Made by a program: the position numbers and the translations under genes. From Escherichia phage ESCO5: DNA of 64,000 nucleotides. The stretch is from sequence record NC_047776.2; one strand, given 5' to 3'. The notes below the pieces were generated by a model. It worked only from the letters and a program-made list of their open reading frames with translations. It was not told where the DNA came from and ran no database searches. Shown one piece after another: positions 14,136 to 39,590 of the stretch (positions within the stretch are counted from its first letter, which is position 1; each line of letters begins with the position of its first letter).

Positions 14136-14180
14136 TGAATGCTATCCTATCATAAAATGTTTAATATTGTCAAGCTTTAA

Positions 14181-14985: not shown

Positions 14986-14995
14986 TGTTTTCTCC

Positions 14996-15163
14996 TTATA
15001 CCTCTAAACGGAAAGTTTCTTTAGATACAAAATCGTATCCACCTTTTTCAAGCCAGTCATTGTAAACCTCATCAGCTTGAGACTCTATCATAAAATACCG
15101 AGTGGTAATTTCGTCTCCGACAATACGCACAATTTTATAGCAAATCATGATACCATTTCCCAT
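14996..15163 (-). CDS. hypothetical small protein (below the ORF-track cutoff)
   Basis: 55 codons; GGAGG 7 nt upstream of the ATG; TAATG overlap with the upstream gene stop. Confidence 0.3.
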   Translation of the reverse strand: MGNGIMICYKIVRIVGDEITTRYFMIESQADEVYNDWLEKGGYDFVSKETFRLEV

Positions 15164-23084: not shown

Positions 23085-24032
23085 CTACAAACTTTCAATA
23101 ACCTGGCGTCGCAATTCGTTTGCATCTGCCAGATTATAATGTGTTCGAACATGTTCCGCTAAGAACAAGCCGCGATCTTCCCGATAGTTCGGATTGCGAA
23201 GAAGCTTAACAATTTCGTAATGCCATTCAGCTTTATTCTCTGCGTAAGCAACAGCGCGAGCATCTACAGGGTTAAAATAAGGTAATACCTTAGAACAAAC
23301 AATCGGAATACCTTTTGCCCCAGCTTCAAGGATTTTGAGATTACTTTTACAATTATTAAAATCATTGTCTACCAAAGGAGCTATAGCAATAGCATGACTT
23401 TCGTAAACACTCATGTAATTATCTAAATCTTTTACAGCAGCTTTATATTTGGCGTTTGGTAAATTTCTACGGATCTTAATCCACTCTTGCCCTGTGATAC
23501 TCTGCGATGCTTCATATCCTGCAATAGTAAGAAGTTCATCATCGAAAGTATTAGAGACTAGTCGTAAATCGGGTTCGTGACTAGCACCGCCAGCCCATAC
23601 AACAGGGGTACCGGATGAACGATCATTTGACAAAGTGAATTGTCCGCTATCAAAAGGAAGTGCATTTCGGATCACAACAACATTCCTATTTAAGTGACGG
23701 ATCTTATATGCCAAATATTCCGTAGTCACAATGACCACATCGGCAAGCTTAACCATAGCTACAATAGCATGAGTGTTTGACTCATATAAACTTGCTAAAT
23801 AATGTTCTGGATTAAGTTGGTAGAAATCATCTAAATCTACAACAATCTTAACACCTTGACGTTTCAGTGACAGAACATATTCTGCCCCTTTAGAATGAAT
23901 ACGGTTAAACACGACAACATCTTTCTTAGGCTGAAAATTATTGTTGTTAAATGGTATAACAATACGATGATAATCACAACCACTGTGAGGTTTTGCATCA
24001 ATTTTCAGTTTAGTCCATTTTTTATTTGACAT
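23085..24032 (-). CDS. glycosyltransferase (GT-B fold, group 1-like), paralog 2
   Basis: Shares VVWAG, APLVDN and KSNLKILEAGAKGIPIVCS with paralog 1. Start placed at the ATG 9 nt after AGGAGG (track ORF extends to 24071). Confidence 0.5.
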   Translation of the reverse strand: MSNKKWTKLKIDAKPHSGCDYHRIVIPFNNNNFQPKKDVVVFNRIHSKGAEYVLSLKRQGVKIVVDLDDFYQLNPEHYLASLYESNTHAIVAMVKLADVVIVTTEYLAYKIRHLNRNVVVIRNALPFDSGQFTLSNDRSSGTPVVWAGGASHEPDLRLVSNTFDDELLTIAGYEASQSITGQEWIKIRRNLPNAKYKAAVKDLDNYMSVYESHAIAIAPLVDNDFNNCKSNLKILEAGAKGIPIVCSKVLPYFNPVDARAVAYAENKAEWHYEIVKLLRNPNYREDRGLFLAEHVRTHYNLADANELRRQVIESL

Positions 24033-24705
24033 GTGCCAGTGCCTCCTCATAAGAAATTCGGATTTTCCCATTTTTAATATCTTCTAAAGACGCTTTATAT
24101 TCTTCCCAGTTAATGCCAATAGCAACTTCTTTCTCTTCTTTTGTCAGATTAGCAAAAGGCATAGGATTGTTTCCAAAAACATCGTCTGGGTGGATATAAG
24201 CCATGATACGAAGTGGACAAGGTATTGCCTGAATGCCCTGATTCAAACCAGCAGCTTTCAAACGGTGTACCCATTCAGCATCTTCAAAACCATAGCCGTG
24301 AGTGTAAGGGCGGAAATAACCCATCTTCTCAACAACGGCACGAGAATACATTGCAAATTGACACATTGCAAGTTCCCAGAGAATAACTTCTCCTTTACTC
24401 CCAACAACTTTATCTTTGAAATACTCCGGCATACCAAAGAAATCCCATCCTCCAGAGACAGCTTGATCTACAAAATATGTTTCCCATCCCTCCATGATTG
24501 GGTAGCAATCGTCGTCAAAAATAAACCAATAATCATAACCTTCTTCATAAAACTGGTGCATAAGTTCATTCCTGGCGTAAGCTACACCTTTACGATCTGG
24601 ATCGTTGAATACTCGAAAATCTGCATGTGGATCTGTTACAAGGTAGTCTTTAAGTGGACGGACACCTACAGTGATAACACCCACTCCGATTTTAATATTT
24701 TCCAT
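24022..24705 (-). CDS. glycosyltransferase-like protein (GT-A-like, DxD-type motif)
   Basis: 227 aa; FIFDDDCYP acidic motif after a beta-strand, typical of GT-A nucleotide-sugar transferases. Confidence 0.45.
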   Translation of the reverse strand: MENIKIGVGVITVGVRPLKDYLVTDPHADFRVFNDPDRKGVAYARNELMHQFYEEGYDYWFIFDDDCYPIMEGWETYFVDQAVSGGWDFFGMPEYFKDKVVGSKGEVILWELAMCQFAMYSRAVVEKMGYFRPYTHGYGFEDAEWVHRLKAAGLNQGIQAIPCPLRIMAYIHPDDVFGNNPMPFANLTKEEKEVAIGINWEEYKASLEDIKNGKIRISYEEALAHVK

Positions 24706-24713
24706 TTTCTCTC

Positions 24714-25277
24714 CTAAATAGTTTTACTGTGATCGTGACAGTGTAATAAATGATGTATAGACCGTTGAGGATTTGTTTGACCTAATCTGTAAATGTGAAA
24801 CAGATACATTCCCCGCATCAATCCTAACCTCTTTCCTTTTTCATGTAAAGTGCGAGAGAAAATTAAGTCGAATTGGATAGATTTTTCTTCGAAAGGAATT
24901 TCATTCCACAATGATTTTCTAAAAAGCAAAAAGAAACCTGCCAGAGGTGTTCCGAAAGGAACTTCTTCAACACTCACTTTATGATATTCTCTTGCAATCT
25001 TAGCATATTCTATATGGTTTAGAATATCTGGATCATCGTTAATTTGGTTAGAGAAAAGCTGATAACCACTACCTAACCTGTTACAAGTTGCACCTATTAC
25101 ATCAAAAGGCGGGTTTGACATAACAAGCTCTTCAAGCATAGATGGTTGATCAGGCAGGAGGAACATTGTATCGGTATCTCTTAAGCACACCCAACTATCA
25201 TCTGGAAGAACGGCAATAGCTTCATTGATAGCCTTGCCGATATTTCCTGTCAGATAGGGAGTAATATAATAAATCAT
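24714..25277 (-). CDS. glycosyltransferase-like protein (GT-A-like)
   Basis: 187 aa; N-terminal Rossmann-like IYYITPY... and LRDTDTMF motif. Confidence 0.4.
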   Translation of the reverse strand: MIYYITPYLTGNIGKAINEAIAVLPDDSWVCLRDTDTMFLLPDQPSMLEELVMSNPPFDVIGATCNRLGSGYQLFSNQINDDPDILNHIEYAKIAREYHKVSVEEVPFGTPLAGFFLLFRKSLWNEIPFEEKSIQFDLIFSRTLHEKGKRLGLMRGMYLFHIYRLGQTNPQRSIHHLLHCHDHSKTI

Positions 25278-26596: not shown

Positions 26597-27199
26597 TTAT
26601 GGACATTCATACCATTCTTTTTTACCACCGAAGGCCATTACCACATCGCAAATATCCAGACCAGCTTTACCTACACCATATGCTTTCAGCTTCCATTCTC
26701 CATCTTCACGAACCAGGGAAGCCACGTGGCAGATTGTGTTGCCAGCTACTTCAGGAGCCAGGAAGTCAAAATCCAGAATTTCCACATTACGCTCGGAGTC
26801 GAAGATTTTAAGCATACCTTCAGAAGCATGACCAAAACGTTTCAGACCTGTATCATCATCAATAGTCAGAACAAAGGCAATCTCTTGTGCATCAGGAGAG
26901 ATTTTAGCCAGAGTAATATCAATCTGCTCCATGCTGCCAGTTCCATCACGAACATCGTCACCAGCAAAGGTAGAACGTTCAGGATCAAACTTATTAGCAT
27001 AGCAAACCAGATGACGTGCAGACAGCATTTCAGGATTGCCAGCGGCATTGTGACGACAAACCAGTGCACTTACATCCAGATCCAGTTTAGAATCAGATTT
27101 CCAAGAGAACTCCAGGCGTAGTTCTTTCAGAGCCGGAGCAACTTTCTTCAGGGAAATTTTTTCGCTAGAGCCTTTTTTCAGGGAAATTTTATCAGTCAT
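26597..27199 (-). CDS. terD: TerD-family protein
   Basis: 200 aa; duplicated N-terminal ISLKK motif, LDLDVSALV, FAGDDVRDGTG, IAFVLTIDD and GEWKLKAYG closely parallel E. coli TerD. Confidence 0.8.
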   Translation of the reverse strand: MTDKISLKKGSSEKISLKKVAPALKELRLEFSWKSDSKLDLDVSALVCRHNAAGNPEMLSARHLVCYANKFDPERSTFAGDDVRDGTGSMEQIDITLAKISPDAQEIAFVLTIDDDTGLKRFGHASEGMLKIFDSERNVEILDFDFLAPEVAGNTICHVASLVREDGEWKLKAYGVGKAGLDICDVVMAFGGKKEWYECP

Positions 27200-27214
27200 C
27201 TTTTGTCTCCTCTA

Positions 27215-27484
27215 TTATTTAAGTGTAATACCAGTTACAGTCAATTCTACTTCCAAAAGCTTAGATGTGTTTTGGATTGATACTAATTGTGCATGATGGT
27301 TTAGTTCTACAGCAGAATAATCATTTTCCCCATCATCTACTTTTAAATAAACAATGATTTCACTAAGGTCTAAACCATTTTCGTCAAATGCATTTTCATA
27401 GACGAAAGTATCTCCTACATCCAAATCTTTAATGGTAAGGCATCGTTTATTTACTTTTTGCTCATCAATTTCGAAGTTTAACAC
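27215..27484 (-). CDS. small protein, paralog of 28506-28784, sits directly upstream of terD
   Basis: 89 aa; shares DLDVGDTF(V/M)Y, DENGLD and (T/N)ITLK with its paralog. Confidence 0.5.
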   Translation of the reverse strand: MLNFEIDEQKVNKRCLTIKDLDVGDTFVYENAFDENGLDLSEIIVYLKVDDGENDYSAVELNHHAQLVSIQNTSKLLEVELTVTGITLK

Positions 27485-27713
27485 TTCTTCCTCCTAATAT
27501 TATCTCCGGTTTATATATACGAAGAATTATAGCATTTTCATTTTCTTTGTCAACCCATTCTTCATAATCAGGCCATACATGAATCTCTACTCTACTTACA
27601 ATATCTTCCATTCGCACAGTCCCAATGAAATACTCTTTGAGACTGCACATAATGAAAGCTTCTCTCTCGCGCCAATAATTTTCTATGACTTGAGAGGCAA
27701 GCTCGTCGATCAT
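27465..27713 (-). CDS. hypothetical protein
   Basis: 82-aa ORF with overlaps at both ends. Confidence 0.4.
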   Translation of the reverse strand: MIDELASQVIENYWREREAFIMCSLKEYFIGTVRMEDIVSRVEIHVWPDYEEWVDKENENAIILRIYKPEIILGGRSVKLRN

Positions 27714-28504
27714 TTTTTAGCACCTACTTTAACAACCCACTCTCCGAACTCTTCAGATAAGAGTTTGTCATAAAGCTCTGAATCTGTCAAGTCTAAATCT
27801 TTAATGCCAATAAAACCAACATTATCATAAGCATTTGCCAGTTCTTTCAGGAAGCCAAACTTCTCATTACCAACGCCAACCATGAACCAATAAATAGGTT
27901 TATTCTTATTCTCTTCAATAAGACGACGAACAGCACTAGGATCACCATTCTCACCATCCGTCTGGAAGAATACAACACCAGGGGTAACGTCAGCACCTGG
28001 TTCAGACACAGCTACAACCTTTTCACGCTCTACAGATACTGTTTCAGTTTTACCAAGCAGACGATTAAAGAAGCCTTTCTTTGGAGCCTCTTCTTGTACC
28101 ACTTGTTTAGTGGTAATATATTTGGTAACAGTGCCAAAATACTCATCGTAGATATCTGCCATTACAGGGGCGTAATTTGTTCCACCTCCGATACGAACAT
28201 TACGCATACATTTACCAACATAGTCATCGTAAACGTCTGCTGTTGCTGGAGTAAGCTCTTGGGAACTCGTATTGAAGGCCCACATATCAATTTGTTGATT
28301 ATCGTCGAACAGCATACCAAAAGGAAGCAGTTTACCTACAAAATCACTCACTACCCCACTAGAATATAGACCATGCATACTACCAGAAATATCTAGAGCA
28401 CATGCTACACGAAGAACAATCTTACCTTCATTCAGGTTCTTATTCTTTTTCAGAGAGAAAGCAAGGTTTTCTTGACGTTTTTTCAGGCTGATTTTATCGG
28501 ACAT
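27710..28504 (-). CDS. TerD-N-terminal motif plus von Willebrand factor A domain protein (TerY/TerF-like)
   Basis: 264 aa; N-terminus MSDKISLKK as in TerD; vWA MIDAS motif LDISGSM, then GGGTNY and FFQTDGENGD. Confidence 0.7.
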   Translation of the reverse strand: MSDKISLKKRQENLAFSLKKNKNLNEGKIVLRVACALDISGSMHGLYSSGVVSDFVGKLLPFGMLFDDNQQIDMWAFNTSSQELTPATADVYDDYVGKCMRNVRIGGGTNYAPVMADIYDEYFGTVTKYITTKQVVQEEAPKKGFFNRLLGKTETVSVEREKVVAVSEPGADVTPGVVFFQTDGENGDPSAVRRLIEENKNKPIYWFMVGVGNEKFGFLKELANAYDNVGFIGIKDLDLTDSELYDKLLSEEFGEWVVKVGAKK

Positions 28505-28505
28505 A

Positions 28506-28784
28506 TTATTTCTCCTTCTTAAGTGTAATGTTGGTAACTTCTAAATCTACTTCCACCATATTTGTATCTGGCGGGATGCAATGAGTATAGCCTCGTTGTG
28601 CTAGTGATCCATTAATACAAATCGCACTGTTTGTGGAATTTTTAATGAACACCAAGTTACGGTAGGTATCCAACCCTGCGTCTTCATAGGCATCATAATA
28701 CATGAATGTGTCCCCTACGTCAAGATCTTCGAAAGCAATAGGTAAATCCTGACCTTTTTCTTCTTGAATATTGAATCTAAACAC
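28506..28784 (-). CDS. small protein, paralog of 27215-27484, sits directly upstream of the TerD-vWA gene
   Basis: Start placed at the GTG 5 nt after GAGGAGG so that the product aligns with the paralog (VFRFNIQEE vs MLNFEIDEQ); track ORF extends to 28850. Confidence 0.45.
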   Translation of the reverse strand: MFRFNIQEEKGQDLPIAFEDLDVGDTFMYYDAYEDAGLDTYRNLVFIKNSTNSAICINGSLAQRGYTHCIPPDTNMVEVDLEVTNITLKKEK

Positions 28785-29340
28785 GCATACCTCCTCTACC
28801 AATTTTGAAGCCCAAATCGTAAGCTTCCTTAGTAATCTTTTGTAACTCACTTATAGGAAGTGTTACAAGAGGATCATCTTCTTCAATTTCCATCTTGTCA
28901 TCTTCTGTTTCAATGAGAGTATTATGCACTTTGTGATAAGGGTTGTCAACACGTTTAAACTTATTCTTTTCTGTGCTGAAAAAACAATCTGGATCTTCTT
29001 CACCATCACCCCAACCTTGATTAGGATCTCCGTCAGATTGTTCTGTAGGGATTTCACCTGTAAAGTACTCTTCCAGCACCATAGCAATACCGTCCCTTGG
29101 ATTTGAGGAATGCATTAAATCACAAACCTTACCCCAATCCATAGCCCATTCGAACCGTTCACGAACGCCATTTTCATCCTCTTTTCCAGAGAAAACACAA
29201 CCATAACTATCATAGTTGCCATACATCTCTTCAATAACAACACCGTCTTTCAAAAGAAAGAGGTAGCAAGGTGATCCGTCGAAAGAAGTAGAAAGGGCAG
29301 CTTTGCCCGATTCTTTGCACAAAAAACTAAAACAACCCAT
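28777..29340 (-). CDS. hypothetical acidic protein
   Basis: 187-aa ORF, Asp/Glu-rich centre. Confidence 0.5.
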   Translation of the reverse strand: MGCFSFLCKESGKAALSTSFDGSPCYLFLLKDGVVIEEMYGNYDSYGCVFSGKEDENGVRERFEWAMDWGKVCDLMHSSNPRDGIAMVLEEYFTGEIPTEQSDGDPNQGWGDGEEDPDCFFSTEKNKFKRVDNPYHKVHNTLIETEDDKMEIEEDDPLVTLPISELQKITKEAYDLGFKIGRGGMRV

Positions 29341-29543
29341 TACAAACCCTCCTTCAGATTATCAAGAGCTACAGTGGTTTCACAAAATTCTCCATAAGCT
29401 TTATGATGTTCCAGAAAAGCTTCGGGTCCACCCCAGTCATTATCTTGTGTATTCCAACCATCAATAAAAGCATCTTCAATGATTGTGATCAGTTCTTGTC
29501 GGGTTAACTGGATAATATTAGGATCGTTATCGTAGTTAAACAT
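29340..29543 (-). CDS. hypothetical protein
   Basis: 67-aa ORF; stop overlaps the next start. Confidence 0.45.
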   Translation of the reverse strand: MFNYDNDPNIIQLTRQELITIIEDAFIDGWNTQDNDWGGPEAFLEHHKAYGEFCETTVALDNLKEGL

Positions 29544-29709
29544 CTTCTTCCTCCTCTAAAATATGAAACCCGTAATTACAATAGTCCTGAAAGGTTTCGT
29601 GCGCAAGATCTTCTATATCCTCTTGAGACATATCATCTTCAATTTCGATATCCACAACCTCATTGCATCCACACCAAGCAGTTTCAATATTCACTCGTAA
29701 TATTTTCAT
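29536..29709 (-). CDS. hypothetical small Cys-containing protein (below the ORF-track cutoff)
   Basis: 57 codons (MKILRVNIETAWCGCNEVVD...); TAATG overlap with the upstream stop. Confidence 0.3.
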   Translation of the reverse strand: MKILRVNIETAWCGCNEVVDIEIEDDMSQEDIEDLAHETFQDYCNYGFHILEEEEDV

Positions 29710-29906
29710 TACTCCTCCTCCTCATTGAAGTCAATATCTGCAAGGAGTTCGAATTTACGGAAGTTACGACAACCTTCATAAATATAACAATCACGACAAA
29801 CTGCTAGAACACTTGGGGGATATATGCCTCCCATCGGTGCGAATCGTTTTTCGTCATCATAACGGACACCAATGTCTTCATCAATTATATAGATACGGAT
29901 TCTCAT
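29709..29906 (-). CDS. hypothetical protein
   Basis: 65-aa ORF, Cys-rich. Confidence 0.45.
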   Translation of the reverse strand: MRIRIYIIDEDIGVRYDDEKRFAPMGGIYPPSVLAVCRDCYIYEGCRNFRKFELLADIDFNEEEE

Positions 29907-31015
29907 TTACCAAGCCCTCGTTTCACAGCAGCTACCATCCCGTCTTCCAGAGATTGAACTTCATTAATATAATCAACACGAGCAGCACGGGCTTCCGTAT
30001 TGATGCGGTTAGTTTCTTCCAACATCTTAACCAAGTTTTCCTGATCGTGACGCAGAGTTTCAATATCCAACACTTGACGGTTAGCCAGTGCTGCTGCTTC
30101 GATCTGATTCTGTGTGGCAAGATCGCTACCTAGTTTAATTGCCAGGTTAAATTCATCAAGAACGTTATTCTGCGTCTCTGCTGCTTTCATTTGACGTAAG
30201 CTCTCGATATACATTGAGAAGTTAGCAGAGTAAGCAGGAATAACATTATTTACTATGTTACGCGCAGATCGCATTAAGCTTGCAGAAACTTTTTGCATAC
30301 CTTGTACACGCGGTCCCATTTGGACACACAGTAGGCGCAACGCCTTTAAATCTGCAATACGAATCTCCAGGAGATCCAAAGTATCTCGGATCACTTGTCG
30401 CTGTTCTACGGCATCTTCTGGAAGAGCAGCCAAAGCTTGTTCTTCTTTTTCATAGGTTGCTGTTAGAAGCTGCATATCTCGGTTCAAACTTGCAGCATAT
30501 TGTCCAATAGCTTGGTGTAGCTTTTCAAGATATACCAAGGAATCTTCTTCTTTGCGAATATCCATTTGAAGGTTCTTTACCAACTCTTCAATACGGTTAT
30601 TAACATTATCAAACTCCCCAAACAGGTCTTCTTTCATACCCATAACTTTTTTAATGAGTTTAGTAATACCCTTGCTTTGTTTAATAGAGTTTGGATCAAG
30701 TTGTTTTGCCTGTTTAATCAAGGCTGTGAGTCGTTCACTCATCTGATCGCCTTGATTACTACGTTGATGTTTTAACACCTCGGCATTCAAGGAACGCAAG
30801 GTTGTTCCTGCCTCTGCCCCAATCTCTTCGATCTCTTGTCGGGTCATAGAAGGTAAAACTGGAACTTCTTGCGGTGCTGCTGGTGCATAAACAGGACTGG
30901 CATCTAACACACTTGGAGCAAATACAGATTTACTTGCATCTGTTGTTGCAGCGAATACACTCATTTCAGACTTCTTCTGACCACCAGTAGCTGCTTTTAA
31001 AAATGGACTTGTCAT
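29903..31015 (-). CDS. TelA-like (toxic anion resistance family) helical protein, tentative
   Basis: 370 aa, predicted long helical/coiled-coil protein with Pro/Ala-rich N-terminus; size, architecture and Ter-gene context suggest TelA/KlaA; PspA-like is an alternative. Confidence 0.4.
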   Translation of the reverse strand: MTSPFLKAATGGQKKSEMSVFAATTDASKSVFAPSVLDASPVYAPAAPQEVPVLPSMTRQEIEEIGAEAGTTLRSLNAEVLKHQRSNQGDQMSERLTALIKQAKQLDPNSIKQSKGITKLIKKVMGMKEDLFGEFDNVNNRIEELVKNLQMDIRKEEDSLVYLEKLHQAIGQYAASLNRDMQLLTATYEKEEQALAALPEDAVEQRQVIRDTLDLLEIRIADLKALRLLCVQMGPRVQGMQKVSASLMRSARNIVNNVIPAYSANFSMYIESLRQMKAAETQNNVLDEFNLAIKLGSDLATQNQIEAAALANRQVLDIETLRHDQENLVKMLEETNRINTEARAARVDYINEVQSLEDGMVAAVKRGLGK

Positions 31016-31602
31016 TCTTCATTCTCCTCTTCTGCATCTCTTATATATGGTGAAACACCGTACTCTTTAGCTACTTTAACCCAATCATCCCATTTATACA
31101 ACCATAATTTTCCTTCAGTTCCTTCTTTATCTGATTTCAACCACATGTTAGGTTGCTTGCCTGGGTACATGCGATTAGGTTTACGATTATAACCTCTAAC
31201 ACATCTTGTCGCAAACCTATCTACCAGAACAAGAACATATTTATATTCGTGGTTCAACGGCTCTTTGGAAGTGGCTTTAGGATTAGCTCCTAATTCTGCT
31301 GCCAGTTTTTGCCAATGAGCACCGTGTCTACTAAACTTACCCATACAACCATCAATAGCATGAGCAATTTCGTGCTTCATTGTATCCACGATCATATCTC
31401 TTGTAGAGTTCTTATGCAAGTGCCAATTTACAACAACAATTTTATCTCGGTAGTTGCACCAACCGAAAGAGTTATTAACTTTGTTTCTAACACAAGCTTT
31501 ATATCCTGCTTCACGTAACATGTTGTAGTAAACAGGAAAATCTTCTTTTATTTCCTGCATCACTTCCCACCACAAGAGTTGCAAGTCTCTCTCGGTATGC
31601 AT
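31012..31602 (-). CDS. SprT-like zinc metallopeptidase domain protein
   Basis: 196 aa; HEIAHAI (HExxH) followed by a further His. Confidence 0.45.
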   Translation of the reverse strand: MHTERDLQLLWWEVMQEIKEDFPVYYNMLREAGYKACVRNKVNNSFGWCNYRDKIVVVNWHLHKNSTRDMIVDTMKHEIAHAIDGCMGKFSRHGAHWQKLAAELGANPKATSKEPLNHEYKYVLVLVDRFATRCVRGYNRKPNRMYPGKQPNMWLKSDKEGTEGKLWLYKWDDWVKVAKEYGVSPYIRDAEEENEE

Positions 31603-31605
31603 AAC

Positions 31606-32199
31606 TTACACCTTAAAAGCGAAATGCGTGGTCGTGGCTTCAAAATCAGGGCCAGATAAACTTGCACTGAAATCTGAAATATTTGTAATTAAAAAGCTTT
31701 TATGCATACCTAACACAGCCACGCTTTCAATATCTTCTACTAACATTTCAATCATGTTAGAAACATGGCTGAACGTAGAGTTTTGTTTTTTGATGGTGTA
31801 GAAAGAAAGATTCCCACCTGCTATATAAGACACCTCTTCAAAATCTTTAATCGTATATTGTGTGCCATCAGTAAAGAAAATGGTAGCTTTATTAGTAGCA
31901 CGTTTCTTGTTTTTTGGTCCTTTTTTACGTTTACTGCGAGTAGGCAAACCGTTTGGAAATACCGTAGCTACAAATTCTTCAGGAGAAACCTCCTTACCGA
32001 AATCATAACCGTAAGAAACAGCGTCTATAAACTCGTCGTCTTCATTTTTAAAATAATGAAAATAGGGCCAATTTGAGAGATTATCGAGCATCTTATGCTC
32101 ATCCACAGCAGAGAACGTATCCCTCAAAGCACGTGTGATTTGCAAAGCATTAGGCAAACTTTTAACACCTGTAATGGAAGTACGAATAGAAATTGTCAT
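31606..32199 (-). CDS. hypothetical protein
   Basis: 197-aa ORF. Confidence 0.5.
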   Translation of the reverse strand: MTISIRTSITGVKSLPNALQITRALRDTFSAVDEHKMLDNLSNWPYFHYFKNEDDEFIDAVSYGYDFGKEVSPEEFVATVFPNGLPTRSKRKKGPKNKKRATNKATIFFTDGTQYTIKDFEEVSYIAGGNLSFYTIKKQNSTFSHVSNMIEMLVEDIESVAVLGMHKSFLITNISDFSASLSGPDFEATTTHFAFKV

Positions 32200-32213
32200 T
32201 GTTTTTCTCCTTA

Positions 32214-32651
32214 TTAACGTCGCTTGCTACGAGATGAACTCTTTTTACTTAAAGGACTATTGTAAGATTTACGAGTTGTATAGCTACTATTTGTTTTAAA
32301 AGTTTGTCTCGGCTTTTCATAAGTTTTTATCTCTTGTTTAGGCTTACTATAAAAATTAGTTTTCGGTTTAGGTGTATTATAATGCTTATTAATAATCGTT
32401 CTGTTATCGTTATAATCCCCACTGCTACGATTACTACCGCCACTCATCATATGCCCTAACAACATACCTGTAGCAAACTCACCAACACCGCTACTACTAG
32501 AACCGCCACCATTGTTGATAATAGTTGTATCTCCGTCAGATCCTTGTTGAGCGTATTGTTGAGGAGGTTGTTGGTATTGTGCAGGATTTGTTTCATCCTC
32601 GCAAGCTGTTAAAAAGATACAACCAATTAAAATCAGGGCTAGTTTTTTCAT
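32214..32651 (-). CDS. putative lipoprotein, Gln/Gly/Ser-rich with basic C-terminus
   Basis: Start placed at MKKLALILIGCIFLTAC (signal peptide with lipobox LTAC); track ORF extends to 32726. Confidence 0.5.
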   Translation of the reverse strand: MKKLALILIGCIFLTACEDETNPAQYQQPPQQYAQQGSDGDTTIINNGGGSSSSGVGEFATGMLLGHMMSGGSNRSSGDYNDNRTIINKHYNTPKPKTNFYSKPKQEIKTYEKPRQTFKTNSSYTTRKSYNSPLSKKSSSRSKRR

Positions 32652-32838
32652 ATTTGCTTTCCTCGTTTTGGCTATTAATACATCTGTGTTTGAAATCTCC
32701 AGAGAAGCAATAAAGTTGCTCTCCATCTCGGTATAAACTCACTTTACTGCCGTTGATTACGCTTGTCAATACAAAAATTACAACAAACAACCCTATTGCA
32801 AAACAAATATTTTCAAACACAACCAACAAGTATTTCAT
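32593..32838 (-). CDS. hypothetical small membrane protein
   Basis: 81-aa ORF with a hydrophobic N-terminal segment; overlaps the lipoprotein start by about 58 nt, so uncertain. Confidence 0.3.
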   Translation of the reverse strand: MKYLLVVFENICFAIGLFVVIFVLTSVINGSKVSLYRDGEQLYCFSGDFKHRCINSQNEESKYEKTSPDFNWLYLFNSLRG

Positions 32839-33185
32839 TTTAAAAATACCTCATCATCAGTTTCATTATCCCAGAAGAACAAGTCCCAACCATTCGGATC
32901 ATTCCATTTAGCTGCTGGAGAAGTCCATATTTGCTCGATATCAATATTCAAAACTTCACCGTTTCGTTTTGAAACAGCTTTAGTTAATTCCCAACGGGAT
33001 ACAGGCTCCACTTCCCCTGAACCACTCCCACAACAAGCTACCACATTAGGAGGCAAATTAATTGGATCTTTGGTCACAATCATAACGCTTACCCCAGGGT
33101 AAACTTTTGAAAGATAATCTAAAACGTAATCCACATCACCAGATAAATCCCAAACAAGTTCTTGAATTTCATCAAAATTATTCAT
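32835..33185 (-). CDS. hypothetical acidic protein
   Basis: 116-aa ORF with RBS AGGAGAG. Confidence 0.5.
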   Translation of the reverse strand: MNNFDEIQELVWDLSGDVDYVLDYLSKVYPGVSVMIVTKDPINLPPNVVACCGSGSGEVEPVSRWELTKAVSKRNGEVLNIDIEQIWTSPAAKWNDPNGWDLFFWDNETDDEVFLK

Positions 33186-33191
33186 AAGTCT

Positions 33192-33222
33192 CTCCTATAA
33201 AATAGCCTCCCGAAGGAGGCTC
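33192..33222 (-). terminator. terminator-like hairpin after terC
   Basis: gcctccttcgggaggc followed by tattttata on the - strand. Confidence 0.4.
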
Positions 33223-33227
33223 ATCTA

Positions 33228-34202
33228 TTAAACAGCAGCTTCTTCTTTTTCAGGGAAGATAAAGCTTGCAATAACACCAAGAGATAATGTGCCTAGAACA
33301 ATCATCAGACTTACGTTAGGGGAAATATCATGCGGGAGGAATGACCACTTGGCATGAAGTGTTTCACCGAACGGGTGATACATAAGTTTAGCACCAACAA
33401 ACACCAGAACCACAGCAACAGCTTTCTCTAAGTGAACCAGATATTTCACAGCTACACTTAACACAAAGAAAAGTGCACGTAAACCAAGAACAGCCATCAG
33501 CATTGCAGAATAAACTAGCAGAGGTTCTTGTGTCACACCGATTACAGCCGGAACTGAATCAAAAGAGAAGACAATATCTGTAAGCTCAATAACAAACACA
33601 CAAAGAAGAGCAGGAGTTGCATATTTAATACCATTCTTAATGGTAATGAACTTTTCACCATCTAGTGCATTGTGCACAGGCAGAACTTTACCTACTAAAC
33701 GAACAGCCCAATGCTTAGAGTAATCAATATCCTCTTCTTCGTCACCACCTTTGATGATAGCCACGGCAGACCAAGCTACAATCAAACCGAACAACACTTG
33801 GACCGACCAATGAAGGTTAAACAAAGCGGTCCCTGCTGCAACAAAAATACCTCGGAAGACAATGGCTCCTGCAATCCCCCAAAGTAAAATCTTATGTTGA
33901 AGATGTGTGCTCTTAATTCCAAAGCTTGCAAAAATTGCCATGAATACCATCAGGTTATCTACAGAAAGACTCTTTTCCAACACATAGCCACTTAGGAAAA
34001 GCGCGGCAAACTCTTTACCATGTTCTACCCAAATGAATGCGTAATATCCTAAAGCTAAAGCAATCCAAAAAACAGACCAAAGCAAAGCAGATTTAATTCC
34101 AATTTCTTTATTCTCTTTATGACCAAAGAAATCGATACCAATAGACAATGCCAAAATACCAACTAAAACAACTACATCAATAATTGGGAAACCGAGTTGC
34201 AT
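33228..34202 (-). CDS. terC: TerC-family integral membrane protein
   Basis: 324 aa, multi-pass hydrophobic; twin signatures EKSLSVDNLMVF and DIVFSFDSVPAV typical of the TerC family. Confidence 0.75.
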   Translation of the reverse strand: MQLGFPIIDVVVLVGILALSIGIDFFGHKENKEIGIKSALLWSVFWIALALGYYAFIWVEHGKEFAALFLSGYVLEKSLSVDNLMVFMAIFASFGIKSTHLQHKILLWGIAGAIVFRGIFVAAGTALFNLHWSVQVLFGLIVAWSAVAIIKGGDEEEDIDYSKHWAVRLVGKVLPVHNALDGEKFITIKNGIKYATPALLCVFVIELTDIVFSFDSVPAVIGVTQEPLLVYSAMLMAVLGLRALFFVLSVAVKYLVHLEKAVAVVLVFVGAKLMYHPFGETLHAKWSFLPHDISPNVSLMIVLGTLSLGVIASFIFPEKEEAAV

Positions 34203-34220
34203 TCTTTTCTCCTCTCTTTG

Positions 34221-34280
34221 CGGGGAACTATTCCCCGCTTCATTTGATATATATCTTACTCTTTTTAAGAACTATGTCAA
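34221..34280 (-). promoter_or_regulatory. promoter plus 5' stem-loop cassette upstream of terC
   Basis: On the - strand: TTGACA (34280-34275), -10-like TAAGAT/TATATA, then hairpin gcggggaa-cta-ttccccgc, RBS and ATG at 34202. Confidence 0.45.
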
Positions 34281-34283
34281 CAC

Positions 34284-34505
34284 TTATTTTGTTGAATGAG
34301 AGGAAAAGATTCCTCGTAATACCGCCAGAATAAACGAAACACAAACCACGGTCCAGAAGGTTACTGGGACAGTGATATCTGCATGACCCATAACTTCAGC
34401 AACATAGTTGTAAGCCAGCAACAGTAACCAAGCTGGAATCAAACTAAGCATAAAAGCAATAACAAAAAAGCTTACCACCGCAATAATACCTGCAAAAACA
34501 CCCAT
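34284..34505 (-). CDS. small membrane protein
   Basis: 73 aa with two or three hydrophobic helices. Confidence 0.5.
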   Translation of the reverse strand: MGVFAGIIAVVSFFVIAFMLSLIPAWLLLLAYNYVAEVMGHADITVPVTFWTVVCVSFILAVLRGIFSSHSTK

Positions 34506-34517
34506 ACTAATCTCCTC

Positions 34518-34991
34518 TTAAAGTTTATAAATAGTCACATCGTGACCTGTTTTTACTAAAGTTTCTTCAATCATCACTTGGATGATAGCCCAATTACCTC
34601 CAGCATATCCAGCGCCAATCATAGGTAAGCCGATCTTACATTTTTGGTCACGGAGAAGCACATCATTAGCCATAGCTATTAGTGCATCGTAAAGTGCATC
34701 ATAGTCCAACTGACGACCTTTAGCATTGTATCCGTAACGGTATTGCCCGTATAGATTATATACCAAAGGGTCTGATTGTTCGTCTGGCACCCCTAAACTA
34801 AAAGAACCTAACTTACTTTGATCACCAGCCATTGTGTCTAAATCTGCCGCATATGCATAAGGGAATGCTCGTTTAATTTGCGGAGCAATTCCTGCCCCCA
34901 TATTACACATACAATTGCAACAATGAGCAATAACAGTTACTTCACCTGCTTTAGCGGCATCAATAAGATTACCTGTTTTCATTTTAAGCAT
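34518..34991 (-). CDS. macro-domain-like protein (ADP-ribose binding/processing), tentative
   Basis: Start placed at the ATG after AAGGAG (track ORF extends to 35057); IAHCCNCMCNMGAGIA and GLPMIGAGYAGG resemble macro-domain signature segments. Confidence 0.4.
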   Translation of the reverse strand: MLKMKTGNLIDAAKAGEVTVIAHCCNCMCNMGAGIAPQIKRAFPYAYAADLDTMAGDQSKLGSFSLGVPDEQSDPLVYNLYGQYRYGYNAKGRQLDYDALYDALIAMANDVLLRDQKCKIGLPMIGAGYAGGNWAIIQVMIEETLVKTGHDVTIYKL

Positions 34992-35004
34992 TTTTAGCTC
35001 CTTA

Positions 35005-35832
35005 TTACAGAATGTGTTGTTTTGTGTAACGATCCAAGAATTCAAAGTTTTCAGCATACTTTGAAATTCGGTTGTAACCTTCTCCCAAACATCCGAAGAA
35101 AAGTTGCTCTACATAGTAGTGTGGCAATTGGCTAAGAATGATTTTGAAGTCTTCGTGATTTTGGCCCATAAGATACTTAATAGGACGAACAAGACACTGT
35201 GCATCACGTTCTTCATTAATCATTTTAACAAACGCTTCTGGTGTATTGATATAGTTAAAATTCAGTTTAGCTTCAGTATCTGCTTGATTACCTTCATATT
35301 TTGCAAAATACAAGAAGTAAACATCATTTTTAACTTGATTTTCATCAAGAATCTCAATCAGTTTGTCTTCATGAGTTCCGGTGATATTTACATCATCAAT
35401 GAACACAAGCTTCTTATCACCCCAGAATTCTTTGTTGCAGTAGAATGTATCCCCATCAATAAGTTTCTTACGACTAGCTTTATCCAAGAAACCATAATCG
35501 TTGATATAGCTAACTTTACGATGAATAATATCCAGTTCTGCTGAACGACCTTGATCATATTGTGCTTGCAACATATTAAAGTAATTAATAAAATGATCTG
35601 TCATCATTGTTGCAGCATTGTGCACATGGTTATAAGGAGAAGGGATGATAACAAATTGTTCCCCAATATGTTTCATTGCCACTTGAGCAAAAAACTGAAG
35701 TACCAATTCTTTACCCATACGACGCGCAGCTTGGTTACTACCAAATTTCAATTTTGAATAGTCTTTGATATCAAAAGTAGCAGTTTCCAGGTCATCAAAT
35801 TTATTTGCAAAAATTTGAGTTTGATTACGCAT
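35005..35832 (-). CDS. phosphoribosyltransferase-like protein (type I PRTase fold)
   Basis: 275 aa; KKLVFIDDVNITGTHEDKL matches the PRPP-binding motif (hydrophobic-hydrophobic-D-D-hydrophobic-x-T-G-T). Confidence 0.5.
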   Translation of the reverse strand: MRNQTQIFANKFDDLETATFDIKDYSKLKFGSNQAARRMGKELVLQFFAQVAMKHIGEQFVIIPSPYNHVHNAATMMTDHFINYFNMLQAQYDQGRSAELDIIHRKVSYINDYGFLDKASRKKLIDGDTFYCNKEFWGDKKLVFIDDVNITGTHEDKLIEILDENQVKNDVYFLYFAKYEGNQADTEAKLNFNYINTPEAFVKMINEERDAQCLVRPIKYLMGQNHEDFKIILSQLPHYYVEQLFFGCLGEGYNRISKYAENFEFLDRYTKQHIL

Positions 35833-36481
35833 TTACAATTTCTCCTCTTTTAAGTTTCTCTAGTAAGTCGTTAGGGTTCTTAATATGACAGAAGTTAATC
35901 CCTATGTCAACACATTTACCATCAAATTCTTCGCTGTCCCCAACATGTAAAATCTCTTCAGCCTTCAAAGGAATGCTTGAATATGTGGCGGTCCTAACAA
36001 AGAATCTAGGATCTGGTTTACATAACAGATGTTCGTCTGAAAAATGCATAAATTCAAAACAATTCCAACTGTCGAACATACAAGCACGACGCAAAATATC
36101 CCCAGATATAAAATTAGTATTGCTTTTAATACTAAGATCATATTTACCAGACAAGTATAGCAAACAAACTGGCAAATCTAAAGCGATATGTGGAGGAAAT
36201 TTAAGAAACCATTGCTCACAATCAAAACGCATTTGTGCAGATTCTACAGGGGTTAAACCTATCTTTCTTCCCAACATATTCCATGCATATGCTACACCTT
36301 CTGCACACCCATTTAGTGCAGCATTATCCATAATTTCTTTGGCATCTTTATATGCTTCTTTTGCCGCACGTTCAGACATTCTACCATATGTAGCAATAGT
36401 GTGCGTACGTGCATCTGCATAGTTTTGATTGGCAGAAATAAGAGTATTCCATACATCAAAAGAAATATGTTTTATTGTCAT
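35825..36481 (-). CDS. HAD-superfamily hydrolase-like protein
   Basis: Start placed at MTIKHISFDVWNTL; motif I-like FDVWNTL (second Asp replaced, as in haloacid dehalogenases) and motif IV-like LHVGDSEEFD. Confidence 0.4.
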   Translation of the reverse strand: MTIKHISFDVWNTLISANQNYADARTHTIATYGRMSERAAKEAYKDAKEIMDNAALNGCAEGVAYAWNMLGRKIGLTPVESAQMRFDCEQWFLKFPPHIALDLPVCLLYLSGKYDLSIKSNTNFISGDILRRACMFDSWNCFEFMHFSDEHLLCKPDPRFFVRTATYSSIPLKAEEILHVGDSEEFDGKCVDIGINFCHIKNPNDLLEKLKRGEIVNA

Positions 36482-36482
36482 A

Positions 36483-37088
36483 CTAGGCCCACCACGCATC
36501 AAGATTTAAGTTACTGTCTACCACAACTTGTTCTATGTGGTAGCCTTTTATCTGTATCCCACTGTTCAAGAGCATATCATATGCTTCATTGAAACGCAAC
36601 TTATCTTCTGCGGAATATAAGCGAGCATTGTAAAATCGGTAATCAAGTTCTTCAGCATTAGAAGAAATACGGAAGAAGTTTGTTTCTACTTCAGGATCAC
36701 TTGCTGAAGTTTTAATGTGAACTTCTCCGTAATTTTCTTTGCTTAGATCCATGAAAAGAACACAGGCAACATGTTTAAACATTCGTTCCAGTTTGTAACG
36801 AACAACATTGAAACCTGCGTTCTCAAGTTTTTCTACACATTGCAACATTAACGTAGTGTCGAGATCGCTTTGATACTTTGTTAACATACGATCACGTTGA
36901 GACTTTGTATCCCGATGTAAATCAATTGTTGTGCATTTGGCACCAATGATCTTAGCTGCTTTCATCAACTCTTCAGAACTAACGTTAGATAAAGTAAGAT
37001 GAAAATGGGCTTTCCACACTTTTTTAGCAGGGACACCAAAAGATTTATCCCCACTATTCGGCATGTTGACTACTACACTATGTTGCAT
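36483..37088 (-). CDS. hypothetical protein
   Basis: 201-aa ORF. Confidence 0.5.
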   Translation of the reverse strand: MQHSVVVNMPNSGDKSFGVPAKKVWKAHFHLTLSNVSSEELMKAAKIIGAKCTTIDLHRDTKSQRDRMLTKYQSDLDTTLMLQCVEKLENAGFNVVRYKLERMFKHVACVLFMDLSKENYGEVHIKTSASDPEVETNFFRISSNAEELDYRFYNARLYSAEDKLRFNEAYDMLLNSGIQIKGYHIEQVVVDSNLNLDAWWA

Positions 37089-37308: not shown

Positions 37309-37779
37309 CTAATCTGATTGCCAACCACTCGCCGTTTTGGTCCATAATCTTTGATTATCTGACCCTCTGAAAGGTTTTGTGGTTGGATTGTTTATTTCAT
37401 ACTTTCCGTCTACAATAATGTCAACAAGATTTTTAATATACAAAGGCACTTCCTCAAAAGTATATCCTGTATACACCATTATATCTTTGCTTGACCCATA
37501 AACGTCTCTAACCTTTTCTATAAGGTTTTTAACATTGTAAATATTCTGCGGATCTAATGGTTCTCCTCCTAAAATTGTTAAACCTTTTACAAACGGTCTT
37601 GACAAATCTTTTAAAACTTGCTCTACATTTTCGTTAGTGAACGGTTTCCCATAAGAATAAGACCAGGCTTTCTGGTTAAAACAGCCACGACAACCGTGGC
37701 TACAACCACTAACCCAGAGGGAGCACCTAACTCCCTCACCATTAATAAGATCTACAGGTTCATATCCTGCAAAATTCAA
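37309..37779 (-). CDS. nrdG: anaerobic ribonucleotide reductase activating protein (radical SAM)
   Basis: 156 aa; CSHGCRGC (CxxxCxxC) cluster near the N-terminus; immediately downstream of nrdD with overlapping stop/start. Confidence 0.8.
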   Translation of the reverse strand: MNFAGYEPVDLINGEGVRCSLWVSGCSHGCRGCFNQKAWSYSYGKPFTNENVEQVLKDLSRPFVKGLTILGGEPLDPQNIYNVKNLIEKVRDVYGSSKDIMVYTGYTFEEVPLYIKNLVDIIVDGKYEINNPTTKPFRGSDNQRLWTKTASGWQSD

Positions 37780-39590
37780 AGATGTTTCTCCCTTTGCAAA
37801 ACTTCCTGCATTTTACCTTTGTTATAAGGCCGTGAATTAGGGGCAGAAAGATACCCTGATACACGTCTAACTACAGAAATAGTTTCTTCTTCATGGTTGC
37901 CACAATTAGGACACTCAAACCCTTTAGCCGTTGCCTTAAATTCTCCATGAAAACCACACTTAAAGCATTGATCCACGGGCTGATTAATACCAAAATAGTG
38001 AATATGTTCATAAGCGTAGTCTACTAAAGTCTCCAAAGCTTCTAAGTTATTCTTTAAGTTTGGTGTTTCGACATAACTTATGTTACCACCATTGCTAATC
38101 TGTGCAAAACCTGCTTCATAATCCCATTTTTCAAAAGGATTTGTTACCAACCATACAGGTTGATGAAAAGAATTAGTAAGATAGTCTCTTTCTACCAGAC
38201 CTGGATATTTTTCATTTAAAGCTGTTGCAAATTTATAGCACAAGGATTCTGCTGGAGTTCCATAAAGACTAAATGCCAACTTAGATCGTTCTTTAAACAC
38301 AGCACACACATCTTTCATATGTTGCAGAATGTTTTTACCTAGTTCCTTTTTATCTTTTTCCTCTGGATAAAGGATTTCCAAAGCTTCGGCAAGACCTACA
38401 TAACCAATACTAATAGAAGCATAACCACCTTCAAACAAAGCACCAATTTCATCGTTGGCATTTAAACGCGCTAAAGCCCCTTCCATGAAAAGAATAGGGT
38501 TTTCAGATGCTTTGGTATGTCTGATACGGTTTACACGTAGCATGTGAGCATCGTAGGCTATCTCCATATGTTTATTAAGAAGATCGGTGAAAGATTCTCC
38601 TTTACTTCTCGCTTCCGCAGCAATCAGAGGCAAGTTGATAGAAACTACTCCAAGGTTGAATCGTCCATCATATTTTTCTCCTTGTTCGGTGGCATAGTAC
38701 GACAAAAAGGAACGACAACCCATACTCGTAACGGTACCATCTGCTGATCCCGTAACTTCTTTGTTCAAAGGAACAGAAATAAAATCTGGATAAATACGAT
38801 CAGCACAACATGCCAAAGCTTGTTGCTTAAGGTCGTAGTTAGGATCACTAGGTTTCATGTTAACACCTTCTTGTAAAAAGAAAATAACTTTAGGGAATAC
38901 AGGCGTTACATGATCTTTACCTAGACCGTTACTATGCACTTTAAGATAGTTAGCTGTGATCATTCTGCCAAAAACAGAGGTATCCAGACCCATACTGATT
39001 GTAATAAAAGGAGATTGTCCATTAACACTCATTAAAGTGTTAACCTGATACAAAAGAGTTTGCATAGCGTCATATACATCTTGTTCGGTCATTTCTAGGG
39101 CTTCTTTCCTTGCATAACAACCGTAGCGACGTTTGGTTATCTCCATGTTTTTAAGGAAACTGGCTTCAACATAAGGACTAAGACCTTTATCAATGTGCGC
39201 ACACGTCTGACCTCCATACTGACTGGAGGCAACAGCTTGGATGATTTGAGTTAGCACTGTAGTAGCTACTCCAATAGATTTTGGTTTTTCTATCTGTGCA
39301 GCACCGATCTTAAAACCATTCTCTAACATATCTTGATAATTAACAAGACAACAGTTTGTAAGAGGAGAGAGCAGATAATCCAAGTCGTGAATATGTCCAA
39401 AACCTTCTGTATGCCATTCTGACAAGTTTTTTGGCAGTATCTGTGTCATTGCCATATGTTTGCTTAAAATCCCCGCCAAGAGATCCCTGTGCGTGTTAAC
39501 AAGGTGGGAAGGTTTGTTTGCATTCTCTCTAGTGTATGTTTCTGAAGTGCGATCTAAAAAAGAAAAAACATCTTGGTACAAATCTTTCAT
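37776..39590 (-). CDS. nrdD: anaerobic ribonucleoside-triphosphate reductase
   Basis: 604 aa; C-terminal zinc ribbon (CFKCG...CPNCG) and glycyl-radical motif RRVSGYL. Confidence 0.85.
   Translation of the reverse strand: MKDLYQDVFSFLDRTSETYTRENANKPSHLVNTHRDLLAGILSKHMAMTQILPKNLSEWHTEGFGHIHDLDYLLSPLTNCCLVNYQDMLENGFKIGAAQIEKPKSIGVATTVLTQIIQAVASSQYGGQTCAHIDKGLSPYVEASFLKNMEITKRRYGCYARKEALEMTEQDVYDAMQTLLYQVNTLMSVNGQSPFITISMGLDTSVFGRMITANYLKVHSNGLGKDHVTPVFPKVIFFLQEGVNMKPSDPNYDLKQQALACCADRIYPDFISVPLNKEVTGSADGTVTSMGCRSFLSYYATEQGEKYDGRFNLGVVSINLPLIAAEARSKGESFTDLLNKHMEIAYDAHMLRVNRIRHTKASENPILFMEGALARLNANDEIGALFEGGYASISIGYVGLAEALEILYPEEKDKKELGKNILQHMKDVCAVFKERSKLAFSLYGTPAESLCYKFATALNEKYPGLVERDYLTNSFHQPVWLVTNPFEKWDYEAGFAQISNGGNISYVETPNLKNNLEALETLVDYAYEHIHYFGINQPVDQCFKCGFHGEFKATAKGFECPNCGNHEEETISVVRRVSGYLSAPNSRPYNKGKMQEVLQREKHL

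Follow-up and report, generated by a model that had tools for sequence, protein, structure and literature searches.

We analysed a 64,000-nt stretch of the genome of Escherichia phage ESCO5 (sequence record NC_047776.2), referred to here as the window, in which a cluster of Ter-type genes occupies positions 26597-36502, every one of them on the minus strand. The window belongs to the genus Phapecoctavirus of the subfamily Stephanstirmvirinae, and the group consists of virulent myoviruses of about 150 kb. An earlier note, made from the letters of the window, had read this region as a module of eight protein families (TerD, vWA, TelA, TerC, phosphoribosyltransferase (PRTase), HAD-like hydrolase, macro and SprT) inside the replication and nucleotide block of a lytic phage. 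Profile searches recovered all eight families where the note had placed them, on the minus strand, and the genomic setting proved right as well: in the order of transcription, nrdD and nrdG are followed by the Ter block and then by genes for a SleB-type endolysin, four glycosyltransferases, primase/helicase, Dam methylase and DNA polymerase. The genes of six of these families are listed first, with the sizes of the products in amino acids (aa).

26597..27199, minus strand: TerD-domain protein, 200 aa (Pfam PF02342, E 3.2e-28)
27710..28504, minus strand: stand-alone TerF-type vWA protein, 264 aa, with the MIDAS motif DISGSM (Pfam PF10138, E 1.6e-37)
29903..31015, minus strand: TelA of the toxic anion resistance family, 370 aa (Pfam PF05816, E 3.2e-33, residues 59-361)
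33228..34202, minus strand: TerC/Alx-type integral membrane protein, 324 aa (Pfam PF03741, E 3e-40)
35005..35832, minus strand: ComF-like type I phosphoribosyltransferase (PRTase_3), gene overlapping the HAD gene (Pfam PF15610, E 2.7e-41)
35825..36502, minus strand: HAD-superfamily hydrolase, with the start annotated in relatives at the ATG at 36481 (Pfam HAD, E 1.4e-3, below the gathering score)

Along its full length TerD could be aligned with two TerD structures of the Protein Data Bank (PDB), 2kxt and 3ibz, the match to 2kxt covering residues 5-183 with an E-value of 1.5e-15. TelA also matched PHROG 5890 (E 1.6e-139); its rating as tentative in the earlier note, which it shared with macro and HAD, was too cautious, and the latter two are indeed weak in Pfam and were then independently supported. 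TerC reached 318.6 bits (E 4.5e-95) with the Alx/TerC model TIGR03718, for which the cutoff is 246.4. Its identity as TerC stands, but of the two SxDN-type signatures with which it had been credited the second in fact reads FDSVPA. A recent copy of the host alx gene was ruled out as its origin, as blastn found no match to the TerC gene in 5,426 E. coli genomes. The vWA protein had been described as a fusion with an N-terminal TerD domain. This was not upheld, since no TerD domain was matched by Pfam in the 264-aa protein, whose vWA domain fills the whole length, and its likeness to TerD is limited to an N-terminal ISLKK motif of about 20 residues (BLASTP E 0.033).

The HAD assignment is supported by the NCBIfam REG-2-like IA model (1.6e-8), by PHROG 14393 (6e-121) and by PDB 2om6 (3.8e-5), and nine aligned homologues retain the HAD motifs. 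Motif I of the window protein reads ISFDVWNTL, with the Asp nucleophile kept, and 2om6, an uncharacterised structure, has an identical FDVWNTL motif. The HADs that are paired with PRTase_3 (window 35825-36502 and loci L004-L011) form a distinct D-x-W-x-T subgroup. The PRTase carries a phosphoribosyl pyrophosphate (PRPP) loop, LVFIDDVNITGTHE, and is extended at the C-terminus by about 90 aa of helical structure; its residues D146, D147, T151, G152 and T153 are invariant among 27 homologues. An AlphaFold2 (AF2) model (pLDDT 92) predicts a type I PRTase core with an extra C-terminal helical domain, and Foldseek with this model returned HGXPRT (1e-6) and ComF (4.7e-5), the predicted fold being most alike to 6-oxopurine PRTases, ComF and PyrR. 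Naming the base from the fold was dropped, as the nearest structures, 6-oxopurine PRTases and ComF, had TM-scores of 0.37-0.47, which are too low for this purpose.

Every open reading frame (ORF) of the window was compared with related loci by tblastn and phmmer. The cluster is colinear with that of phage phi92 (genus Justusliebigvirus), where the genes for HAD, PRTase, macro, a small membrane protein, TerC and small membrane proteins or lipoproteins are followed by those for TelA, conserved ORFs, vWA, TerD and the endolysin. Identity to phi92 amounts to 81% for TerD, 79% for TelA (gp178), 71% for TerC, 67% for vWA, 65% for PRTase, 49% for macro and 47% for HAD, with 76% for the endolysin as a comparison, and the Ter proteins are better conserved than many neighbouring genes. 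Klebsiella phage FBKp34 (unclassified Stephanstirmvirinae) carries TerC, vWA, two TerD, TelA, HAD and PRTase within 10 kb in shuffled order, with no macro or SprT gene in this locus. Two metagenomic phage contigs (L008 and L009), with PRTases about 48% identical to that of the window, have a compact arrangement of TerC, an unassigned gene, TerD, a second unassigned gene, vWA, HAD and PRTase_3, in which no TelA was recognised. More loosely, Brevundimonas and some Caulobacter jumbo phages encode TerC, TelA and PRTase far apart in one genome, TerC is present by itself in smaller Cronobacter, Proteus, Vibrio and Pectobacterium phages, and TelA is present in RaK2/PBECO4-like jumbo phages and phiPsa374-like phages.

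The co-conserved core consists of TerC, TerD, vWA, TelA, HAD and PRTase_3, and the cluster is best seen as a set of linked sub-modules, not as an indivisible operon. Chance is excluded as an explanation by the E-values of the families together with the co-linearity in relatives. Failure to recover the families and absence of co-conservation, the two outcomes that the earlier note had named as fatal to its proposal, were not what we found, given the profile and structure matches and the joint conservation in phi92 and FBKp34. An alternative is that the genes form no functional unit and are independently acquired accessory genes (morons) sharing a permissive early region. The occurrence of the sub-modules apart from each other elsewhere, the predicted promoter and terminator that TerC has to itself (see below), the shuffled order in FBKp34 and the many unrelated small ORFs in between all agree with it. 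We nevertheless consider it quite unlikely, as the same six families are combined in no fewer than three divergent Stephanstirmvirinae lineages, all but a recognisable TelA are found compactly together in unrelated metagenomic phages, TerC, TelA and PRTase share the same Brevundimonas and Caulobacter jumbo phage genomes, and bacterial genomics ties these families to one another according to the summary given by Iyer et al. 2021.

In all cases the HAD gene lies directly upstream of the PRTase_3 gene, and mostly the two overlap. In Rhizobium phages, Caulobacter phage CcrColossus and XaC1-like T4-like jumbo phages, and also on Rhizobium and Sinorhizobium plasmids amid unrelated metabolic genes, the pair had no Ter gene within 10 kb of it. 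These loci thus speak against an obligatory tie of the pair to Ter genes, and HAD-PRTase is an autonomous two-gene unit. A tblastn search of PLSDB with the PRTase detected rhizobial and Hymenobacter plasmids only; the PRTase as a link to enterobacterial ter plasmids was therefore rejected, no enterobacterial PLSDB plasmid having a PRTase_3 homologue. In Ter-less phages the neighbours of the pair are often nucleotide- or RNA-metabolism genes, encoding dihydrofolate reductase (DHFR), PurA, thymidine kinase (TK), RNA ligase or CCA-adding enzyme. In XaC1 (L012 9333-12527) and in locus L013 (9345-12562) the pair is flanked by an RNA ligase gene on one side and by the gene for a 530-aa DUF2828/DUF7788 protein on the other. 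Genes for CCA-adding enzyme, NUDIX, YqeY and PTH2 are close by, an RNA-repair and translation setting unlike the Ter setting.

These neighbourhoods bear on a second alternative, which takes up the nucleotide suggestion of the earlier note and in which PRTase, HAD and their neighbours would make a modified nucleotide or nucleoside for DNA modification or salvage, with the Ter proteins being ancillary. The PRPP loop is intact and the modelled core resembles that of 6-oxopurine PRTases; the Ter-less pair stands beside DHFR and PurA in a Rhizobium phage and beside TK in XaC1-like phages, a ribonucleotide reductase (RNR) gene is near the pair in L009, and the pair of the window follows nrdDG. Set against this, rhizobial plasmids carry the pair among unrelated metabolic genes, no DNA-modifying transferase is linked to the pair, and there was no sign here of modified DNA in these phages, so that we regard this possibility as very unlikely. 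The full bacterial pathway for the Ter metabolite is said to include an ATP-grasp enzyme, extra PRTases and a lyase; no ORF of the 26.6-37.1 kb interval matched a Pfam family for ATP-grasp, an extra PRTase or a lyase.

The two remaining families of the earlier note, which had counted them among the components of the unit, behave differently from this core.

34518..35057, minus strand: macro-domain protein of the TARG1/DarG/SCO6735 clade (Pfam Macro, E 1.5e-4, at the gathering score)
31012..31602, minus strand: SprT-like HExxH metalloprotease-family protein with the motif HEIAH (Pfam PF10263, E 4.2e-9, 36.7 bits for a cutoff of 25.6)

The likely start of the macro gene is at 34991, giving a protein of 157 aa that matches the annotation of relatives. 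Structures related to it are PDB 5e3b (SCO6735; 5.6e-13), TARG1 (2e-6) and DarG 5m31 (3.5e-6), and the protein also matches PHROG 335 (1.6e-55) and the DarG models of NCBIfam and PADLOC (3.2e-10 for PADLOC). Homologues are present in 2,983 phage records, T4 among them, and mostly occur without Ter genes. The window protein is 37% identical to T4 Tk.4/AdfM (E 4e-13, 68% of the protein covered), and its phi92 homologue is annotated as 'Tk.4-like'. The T4 macrodomain protein Tk.4, renamed AdfM, was reported to be conditionally essential against DarTG2 (HIDEN-SEQ 2025 preprint, 10.1101/2025.11.20.689424); the window protein is homologous to it and to DarG macro domains, with anti-DarT2 activity demonstrated for the T4 protein only. 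The most economical reading of these homologies is that macro is a stand-alone counter-defence gene of the anti-DarT type and not a Ter component. The stop codon of the SprT-like gene overlaps the TelA start. The phi92 and FBKp34 loci yielded no SprT homologue, and phi92 gp179 has no Pfam match; to judge from this distribution, the SprT-like gene is a lineage-specific addition confined to Phapecoctavirus. Inclusion of either gene in the unit is therefore not sustained.

The earlier note had also suggested a use in counter-defence or ADP-ribose chemistry, which is plausible for the macro gene through its homology to AdfM and not for the cluster as a whole. In its widest form this proposal makes the region a counter-defence island acting on ADP-ribose and NAD, in which macro would strip ADP-ribose while PRTase and HAD would rebuild or destroy nucleotide signals. 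Besides the homology of macro to T4 Tk.4/AdfM, with its reported action against DarTG2, and to DarG, it can draw on a 201-aa ORF just upstream of HAD that matches PADLOC AbiEi models and on NAD-related genes near the pair in some phages. Yet neither macro nor the AbiEi-like ORF follows the Ter genes through the relatives: FBKp34 has neither of them and phi92 lacks the AbiEi-like ORF; macro homologues in about 3,000 phage records are mostly in Ter-less phages, and the PRTase_3 family is without a known NAD role. We give the island as a whole little credence.

A scan of the sequence revealed candidate regulatory signals; the promoters and terminators given here are consensus matches and hence predictions.

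27553-27526, minus strand: perfect sigma-70 consensus promoter TTGACA-N16-TG-TATAAT, upstream of an 89-aa paralogue (see below) and TerD
28949-28921, minus strand: near-perfect promoter-like site, upstream of a paralogue of about 92 aa and the vWA gene
34280-34253, minus strand: sigma-70-like promoter TTGACA-N16-TAAGAT ahead of TerC (phi92 equivalent TTGACT-N16-TATAGT)
34220..34238, minus strand: hairpin GCGGGGAA-tag-TTCCCCGC in the 5' untranslated region (5'UTR) of TerC, just upstream of the ribosome-binding site
33198..33221, minus strand: terminator-like hairpin with a T-run directly after the TerC stop codon (phi92 has an equivalent)

Promoter, 5'UTR hairpin, ribosome-binding site, ORF and terminator together make up a TerC unit at 33198-34280 on the minus strand, with its phi92 equivalent at 14048-15130 of locus L004. 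The phi92 hairpin, GCGGAGGA-ttg-TCCTCCGC, differs from that of the window by two compensatory pair changes. As phi92 keeps the arrangement with two compensatory changes, the hairpin is probably functional and TerC is likely to be an independent transcription unit, which suggests an RNA element controlling or stabilising the TerC mRNA. A Mn riboswitch ahead of the Alx-type TerC was considered and rejected, since a scan of the whole window at the Rfam gathering threshold found no family. The annotation of FBKp34 likewise places promoters and terminators around the TerD and TelA genes, with one promoter ahead of the TerD genes. The predicted promoters would fit early expression by the host RNA polymerase.

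The Alx-like character of TerC leads to a further alternative, metal supply or detoxification without any role in exclusion or defence. Here TerC would export Mn2+ (or Zn2+ or Ca2+) with TerD and vWA as metal-binding partners, so that metal pools are tuned for metalloenzymes such as the adjacent ribonucleotide reductases, or exported proteins are metalated. TerC does score above the TIGR03718 Alx cutoff, the cluster adjoins nrdDG and other RNR genes, and several smaller phages have TerC alone. From bacteria it is known that TerC-family proteins export Mn and metalate secreted enzymes, Alx being a Mn exporter, and that a terC mutant is sensitive to Zn and Mn. Metal handling of this kind leaves TelA, PRTase and HAD unexplained, no Mn riboswitch precedes TerC in the Rfam search, TerC was dispensable for metal stress in one K. 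pneumoniae study, and the calcium-binding loop of TerD is partly degenerate (GDD-VRDGTGSME, in K. pneumoniae TerD GDNRTGEGDGDDE). On balance this explanation appears unlikely.

The reading that we favour, tentatively and by analogy with the bacterial systems, is that the cluster may be an envelope and divalent-cation stress device which protects the infected cell or excludes competing phages; we rate it as somewhat short of even. The region would represent a phage version of the bacterial Ter 'hub', with TerC in the membrane, TerD contributing a calcium-binding fold, a TerF-type vWA protein and TelA as a sub-membrane helical component. Early in infection, an assembly of TerC, TerD, vWA and TelA would be placed at the inner membrane, where it would handle divalent cations (Mn2+, Ca2+ or Zn2+) and buffer envelope stress. 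As an outcome, the infected cell might stay energised until lysis, or its envelope might be shut to superinfecting phages and pore-forming colicins, in parallel to the service that the plasmid ter operon renders to bacteria. The PRTase would couple some base to PRPP, and from the product the HAD would form a small nucleoside-like compound, possibly an input to the hub or a regulator of it, although the pair, existing alone elsewhere, could equally act independently.

Data from bacteria are in line with such a function. The ter operon was linked to phage inhibition and colicin resistance (Whelan 1995, as cited in later papers), deletion of terC in K. pneumoniae resulted in larger plaques and in Zn and Mn sensitivity, and TerC was required for tolerance of polymyxin B and cetylpyridinium, both membrane-active agents. 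TerC, the TerD domain and the TerF-type vWA are common to the phage and to plasmid or chromosomal terZABCDEF (R478, E. coli O157, K. pneumoniae), whose phenotypes in bacteria comprise phage inhibition, colicin resistance and envelope-stress tolerance; TelA comes in bacteria from another operon (kilA/telAB) and not from terZABCDEF. Circumstantial support for an envelope-directed role is gained from the host-type promoters, from the conserved small membrane proteins and the lipoprotein inside the cluster, and from the good conservation of the hub proteins.

Several observations weigh against this favoured envelope-stress reading. Compared with GDNxTGxGDGDDE, three acidic positions of the TerD loop are replaced by T, S and M, with the DLDxS motif retained. 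The set is incomplete next to terZABCDEF, the phage being without TerB and without TerZ/A/E/X paralogues, and its vWA protein is not TerD-fused; no ORF of the region matched TerB or further Ter families in Pfam, and there is a single TerD-domain ORF. No PADLOC model matched TerD, vWA, TelA, TerC, PRTase or HAD. Motif I across the nine aligned HAD homologues reads hISFDvW(N/K/Q)TL, in which the Asp at position +2 is replaced by an invariant Trp. In HAD phosphatases this Asp is the general acid/base, and its replacement by Trp makes phosphatase action of the HAD on the PRTase product insecure. The claim of a single machine is weakened because the HAD-PRTase pair is found by itself in other phages or plasmids, and so are TerC and TelA. 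Finally, the phiPsa374 paper gives the function of phage Ter genes as unknown.

A bolder version starts from the HAD(DxWxT)-PRTase_3 cassette, which is present in at least five large virulent phage lineages and on rhizobial plasmids. The cassette might make a ribosylated small molecule that, in Ter phages, would serve as a second messenger read by TerD, vWA, TelA and TerC and would thereby seal the envelope against rivals. This is a conjecture to which we attach low probability; if true, the cluster would be a phage-owned signalling immune system in phage-phage conflict.

Ter systems in virulent phages are already published (Iyer et al. 2021; the FBKp34 and phiPsa374 papers) and annotated in GenBank, so that the cluster is no new kind of system. 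In the model outlined by Iyer, Anantharaman, Krishnan, Burroughs and Aravind (2021; Viruses 13:63; PMC7824862), in its passage on Ter systems, the signal sensed by TerD and TerB is a nucleoside or nucleotide produced by PRTase and HAD, TerC alters membrane transport, and TelA and vWA build a sub-membrane structure. The same passage proposes that phages use Ter systems against superinfecting phages and states that 'certain other related smaller tailed phages' have them. Its component list matches the window (PRTase, HAD, TerD, TerC, TerF-type vWA and TelA), and virulent tailed phages are concerned in both cases. As far as that passage goes, it treats jumbo phages (Acinetobacter ME3 and Caulobacter phages) and not the 150-kb phapecoctavirus of the window, and it does not discuss the autonomy of HAD-PRTase_3 or the odd HAD motif.

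The FBKp34 paper (phiKp34; DNA Res 2021, PMC8386662) reported terC, terF-vWA, terD and telA as a cluster. FBKp34 belongs to the same subfamily as the window and differs from it in its two TerD genes, in the order of the genes and in the lack of a macro or SprT gene next to the cluster; its PRTase and HAD genes, about 3 kb downstream, were left unlinked to the Ter cluster in that paper. The authors of the phiPsa374 paper considered partial Ter sets unlikely to confer tellurite resistance. TerC, TelA, TerD, vWA, macro, SprT, PRTase and REG-2-like HAD are among the annotations of phi92, ESCO13, DE16, SF1-1, SKA64 and P3322, and phi92 was annotated with TerC and TelA functions in 2012; between them, the GenBank entries of near-identical phages name all the components. 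The increments of the present analysis, namely the split of core and passengers, the autonomy of HAD-PRTase_3, the DxWxT motif and the conserved TerC transcription unit, are refinements. Ter genes are among the most widespread bacterial stress or 'resistance' loci, and their repeated capture by virulent phages suggests that they are of use in the course of one infection. The joint role of TerC, TerD, vWA and TelA and the product of PRTase and HAD could conveniently be studied in a coliphage of this group that is genetically tractable and forms plaques on E. coli K-12. The value thus lies in an accessible model and in a true core told from passengers (macro, SprT).

Between the genes discussed so far lie further small and uncharacterised ORFs.

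34284..34505, minus strand: 73-aa protein with 2-3 hydrophobic helices; phi92 homologue with 60% identity (tblastn)
32835..33185, minus strand: 116-aa protein, no assigned function; beside TerC in FBKp34 too (gp125, 45% identity, tblastn)
32593..32838, minus strand: 81-aa protein with an N-terminal transmembrane segment, kept in phi92
32214..32726, minus strand: predicted lipoprotein (start annotated in relatives 32651) with the signal MKKLALILIGCIFLTAC, the lipobox LTAC and a Gly/Ser/Asn-rich body
31606..32199, minus strand: 197-aa protein, no assigned function, akin to the C-terminal part of phi92 gp179
29340..29906, minus strand: three small acidic ORFs of 65, 57 and 67 aa; the 57-aa product weakly matches DUF7167 and the 67-aa product is kept in phi92
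28777..29340, minus strand: 187-aa conserved protein, 76% identical to phi92 gp175; no Pfam or PADLOC match
28506..28850, minus strand: small protein, about 92 aa according to relatives, directly upstream of the vWA gene; paralogue of 27215-27484
27465..27713, minus strand: 82-aa ORF, no assigned function, seen in the sequence
27215..27484, minus strand: 89-aa paralogue of 28506-28850, directly upstream of TerD

The homologue of the predicted lipoprotein in phi92 is gp180, which carries a SignalP note. The two paralogues are 34% identical (BLASTP 4e-14) and have the motif DLDVGDTF in common. Each of them has a strong sigma-70-like promoter ahead, and phi92 possesses only the copy upstream of vWA. 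The 201-aa AbiEi-like ORF upstream of HAD is missing from FBKp34 as well as from phi92. Pfam and PHROGs were uninformative for the interspersed and conserved ORFs and for the proteins of about 390 aa and 311 aa in the metagenomic modules, and the identity of the latter two as divergent TelA was not demonstrable from either database.

Aligned from end to end, the DNA of the 9.9-kb region shares 98.9% identity with Escherichia phage nieznany and Phapecoctavirus DIJ07P1, and dozens of further phAPEC8-like phages are 95-99% identical to it. In total, 128 phage records matched in the DNA search with this region, 61 of them covering at least 80% of the query. Upstream in transcription order, nrdD (37776-39590, minus strand) is one unbroken 604-aa ORF in the window. 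In nieznany it is annotated as two pieces with an extra ORF between them, and in phi92 as a 'spliced variant', which points to a presence/absence polymorphism of an intron or homing element. The glycosyltransferase genes form a row at approximately 23085-25277 on the minus strand and further downstream, right after the endolysin and in the same early/replication direction; annotated relatives have four. Campylobacter-labelled records (five, including B15, A145 and A150) are among the region-level DNA matches, with 97.6% for B15, Acinetobacter phage ABPW7 has proteins more than 99% identical to those of the window phage, and Pseudomonas phage PsgM04F falls into a group with phiWec186-like coliphages, at about 72-79% protein identity. 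The host labels Campylobacter, Acinetobacter (ABPW7) and Pseudomonas (PsgM04F) are probably errors or contaminants.

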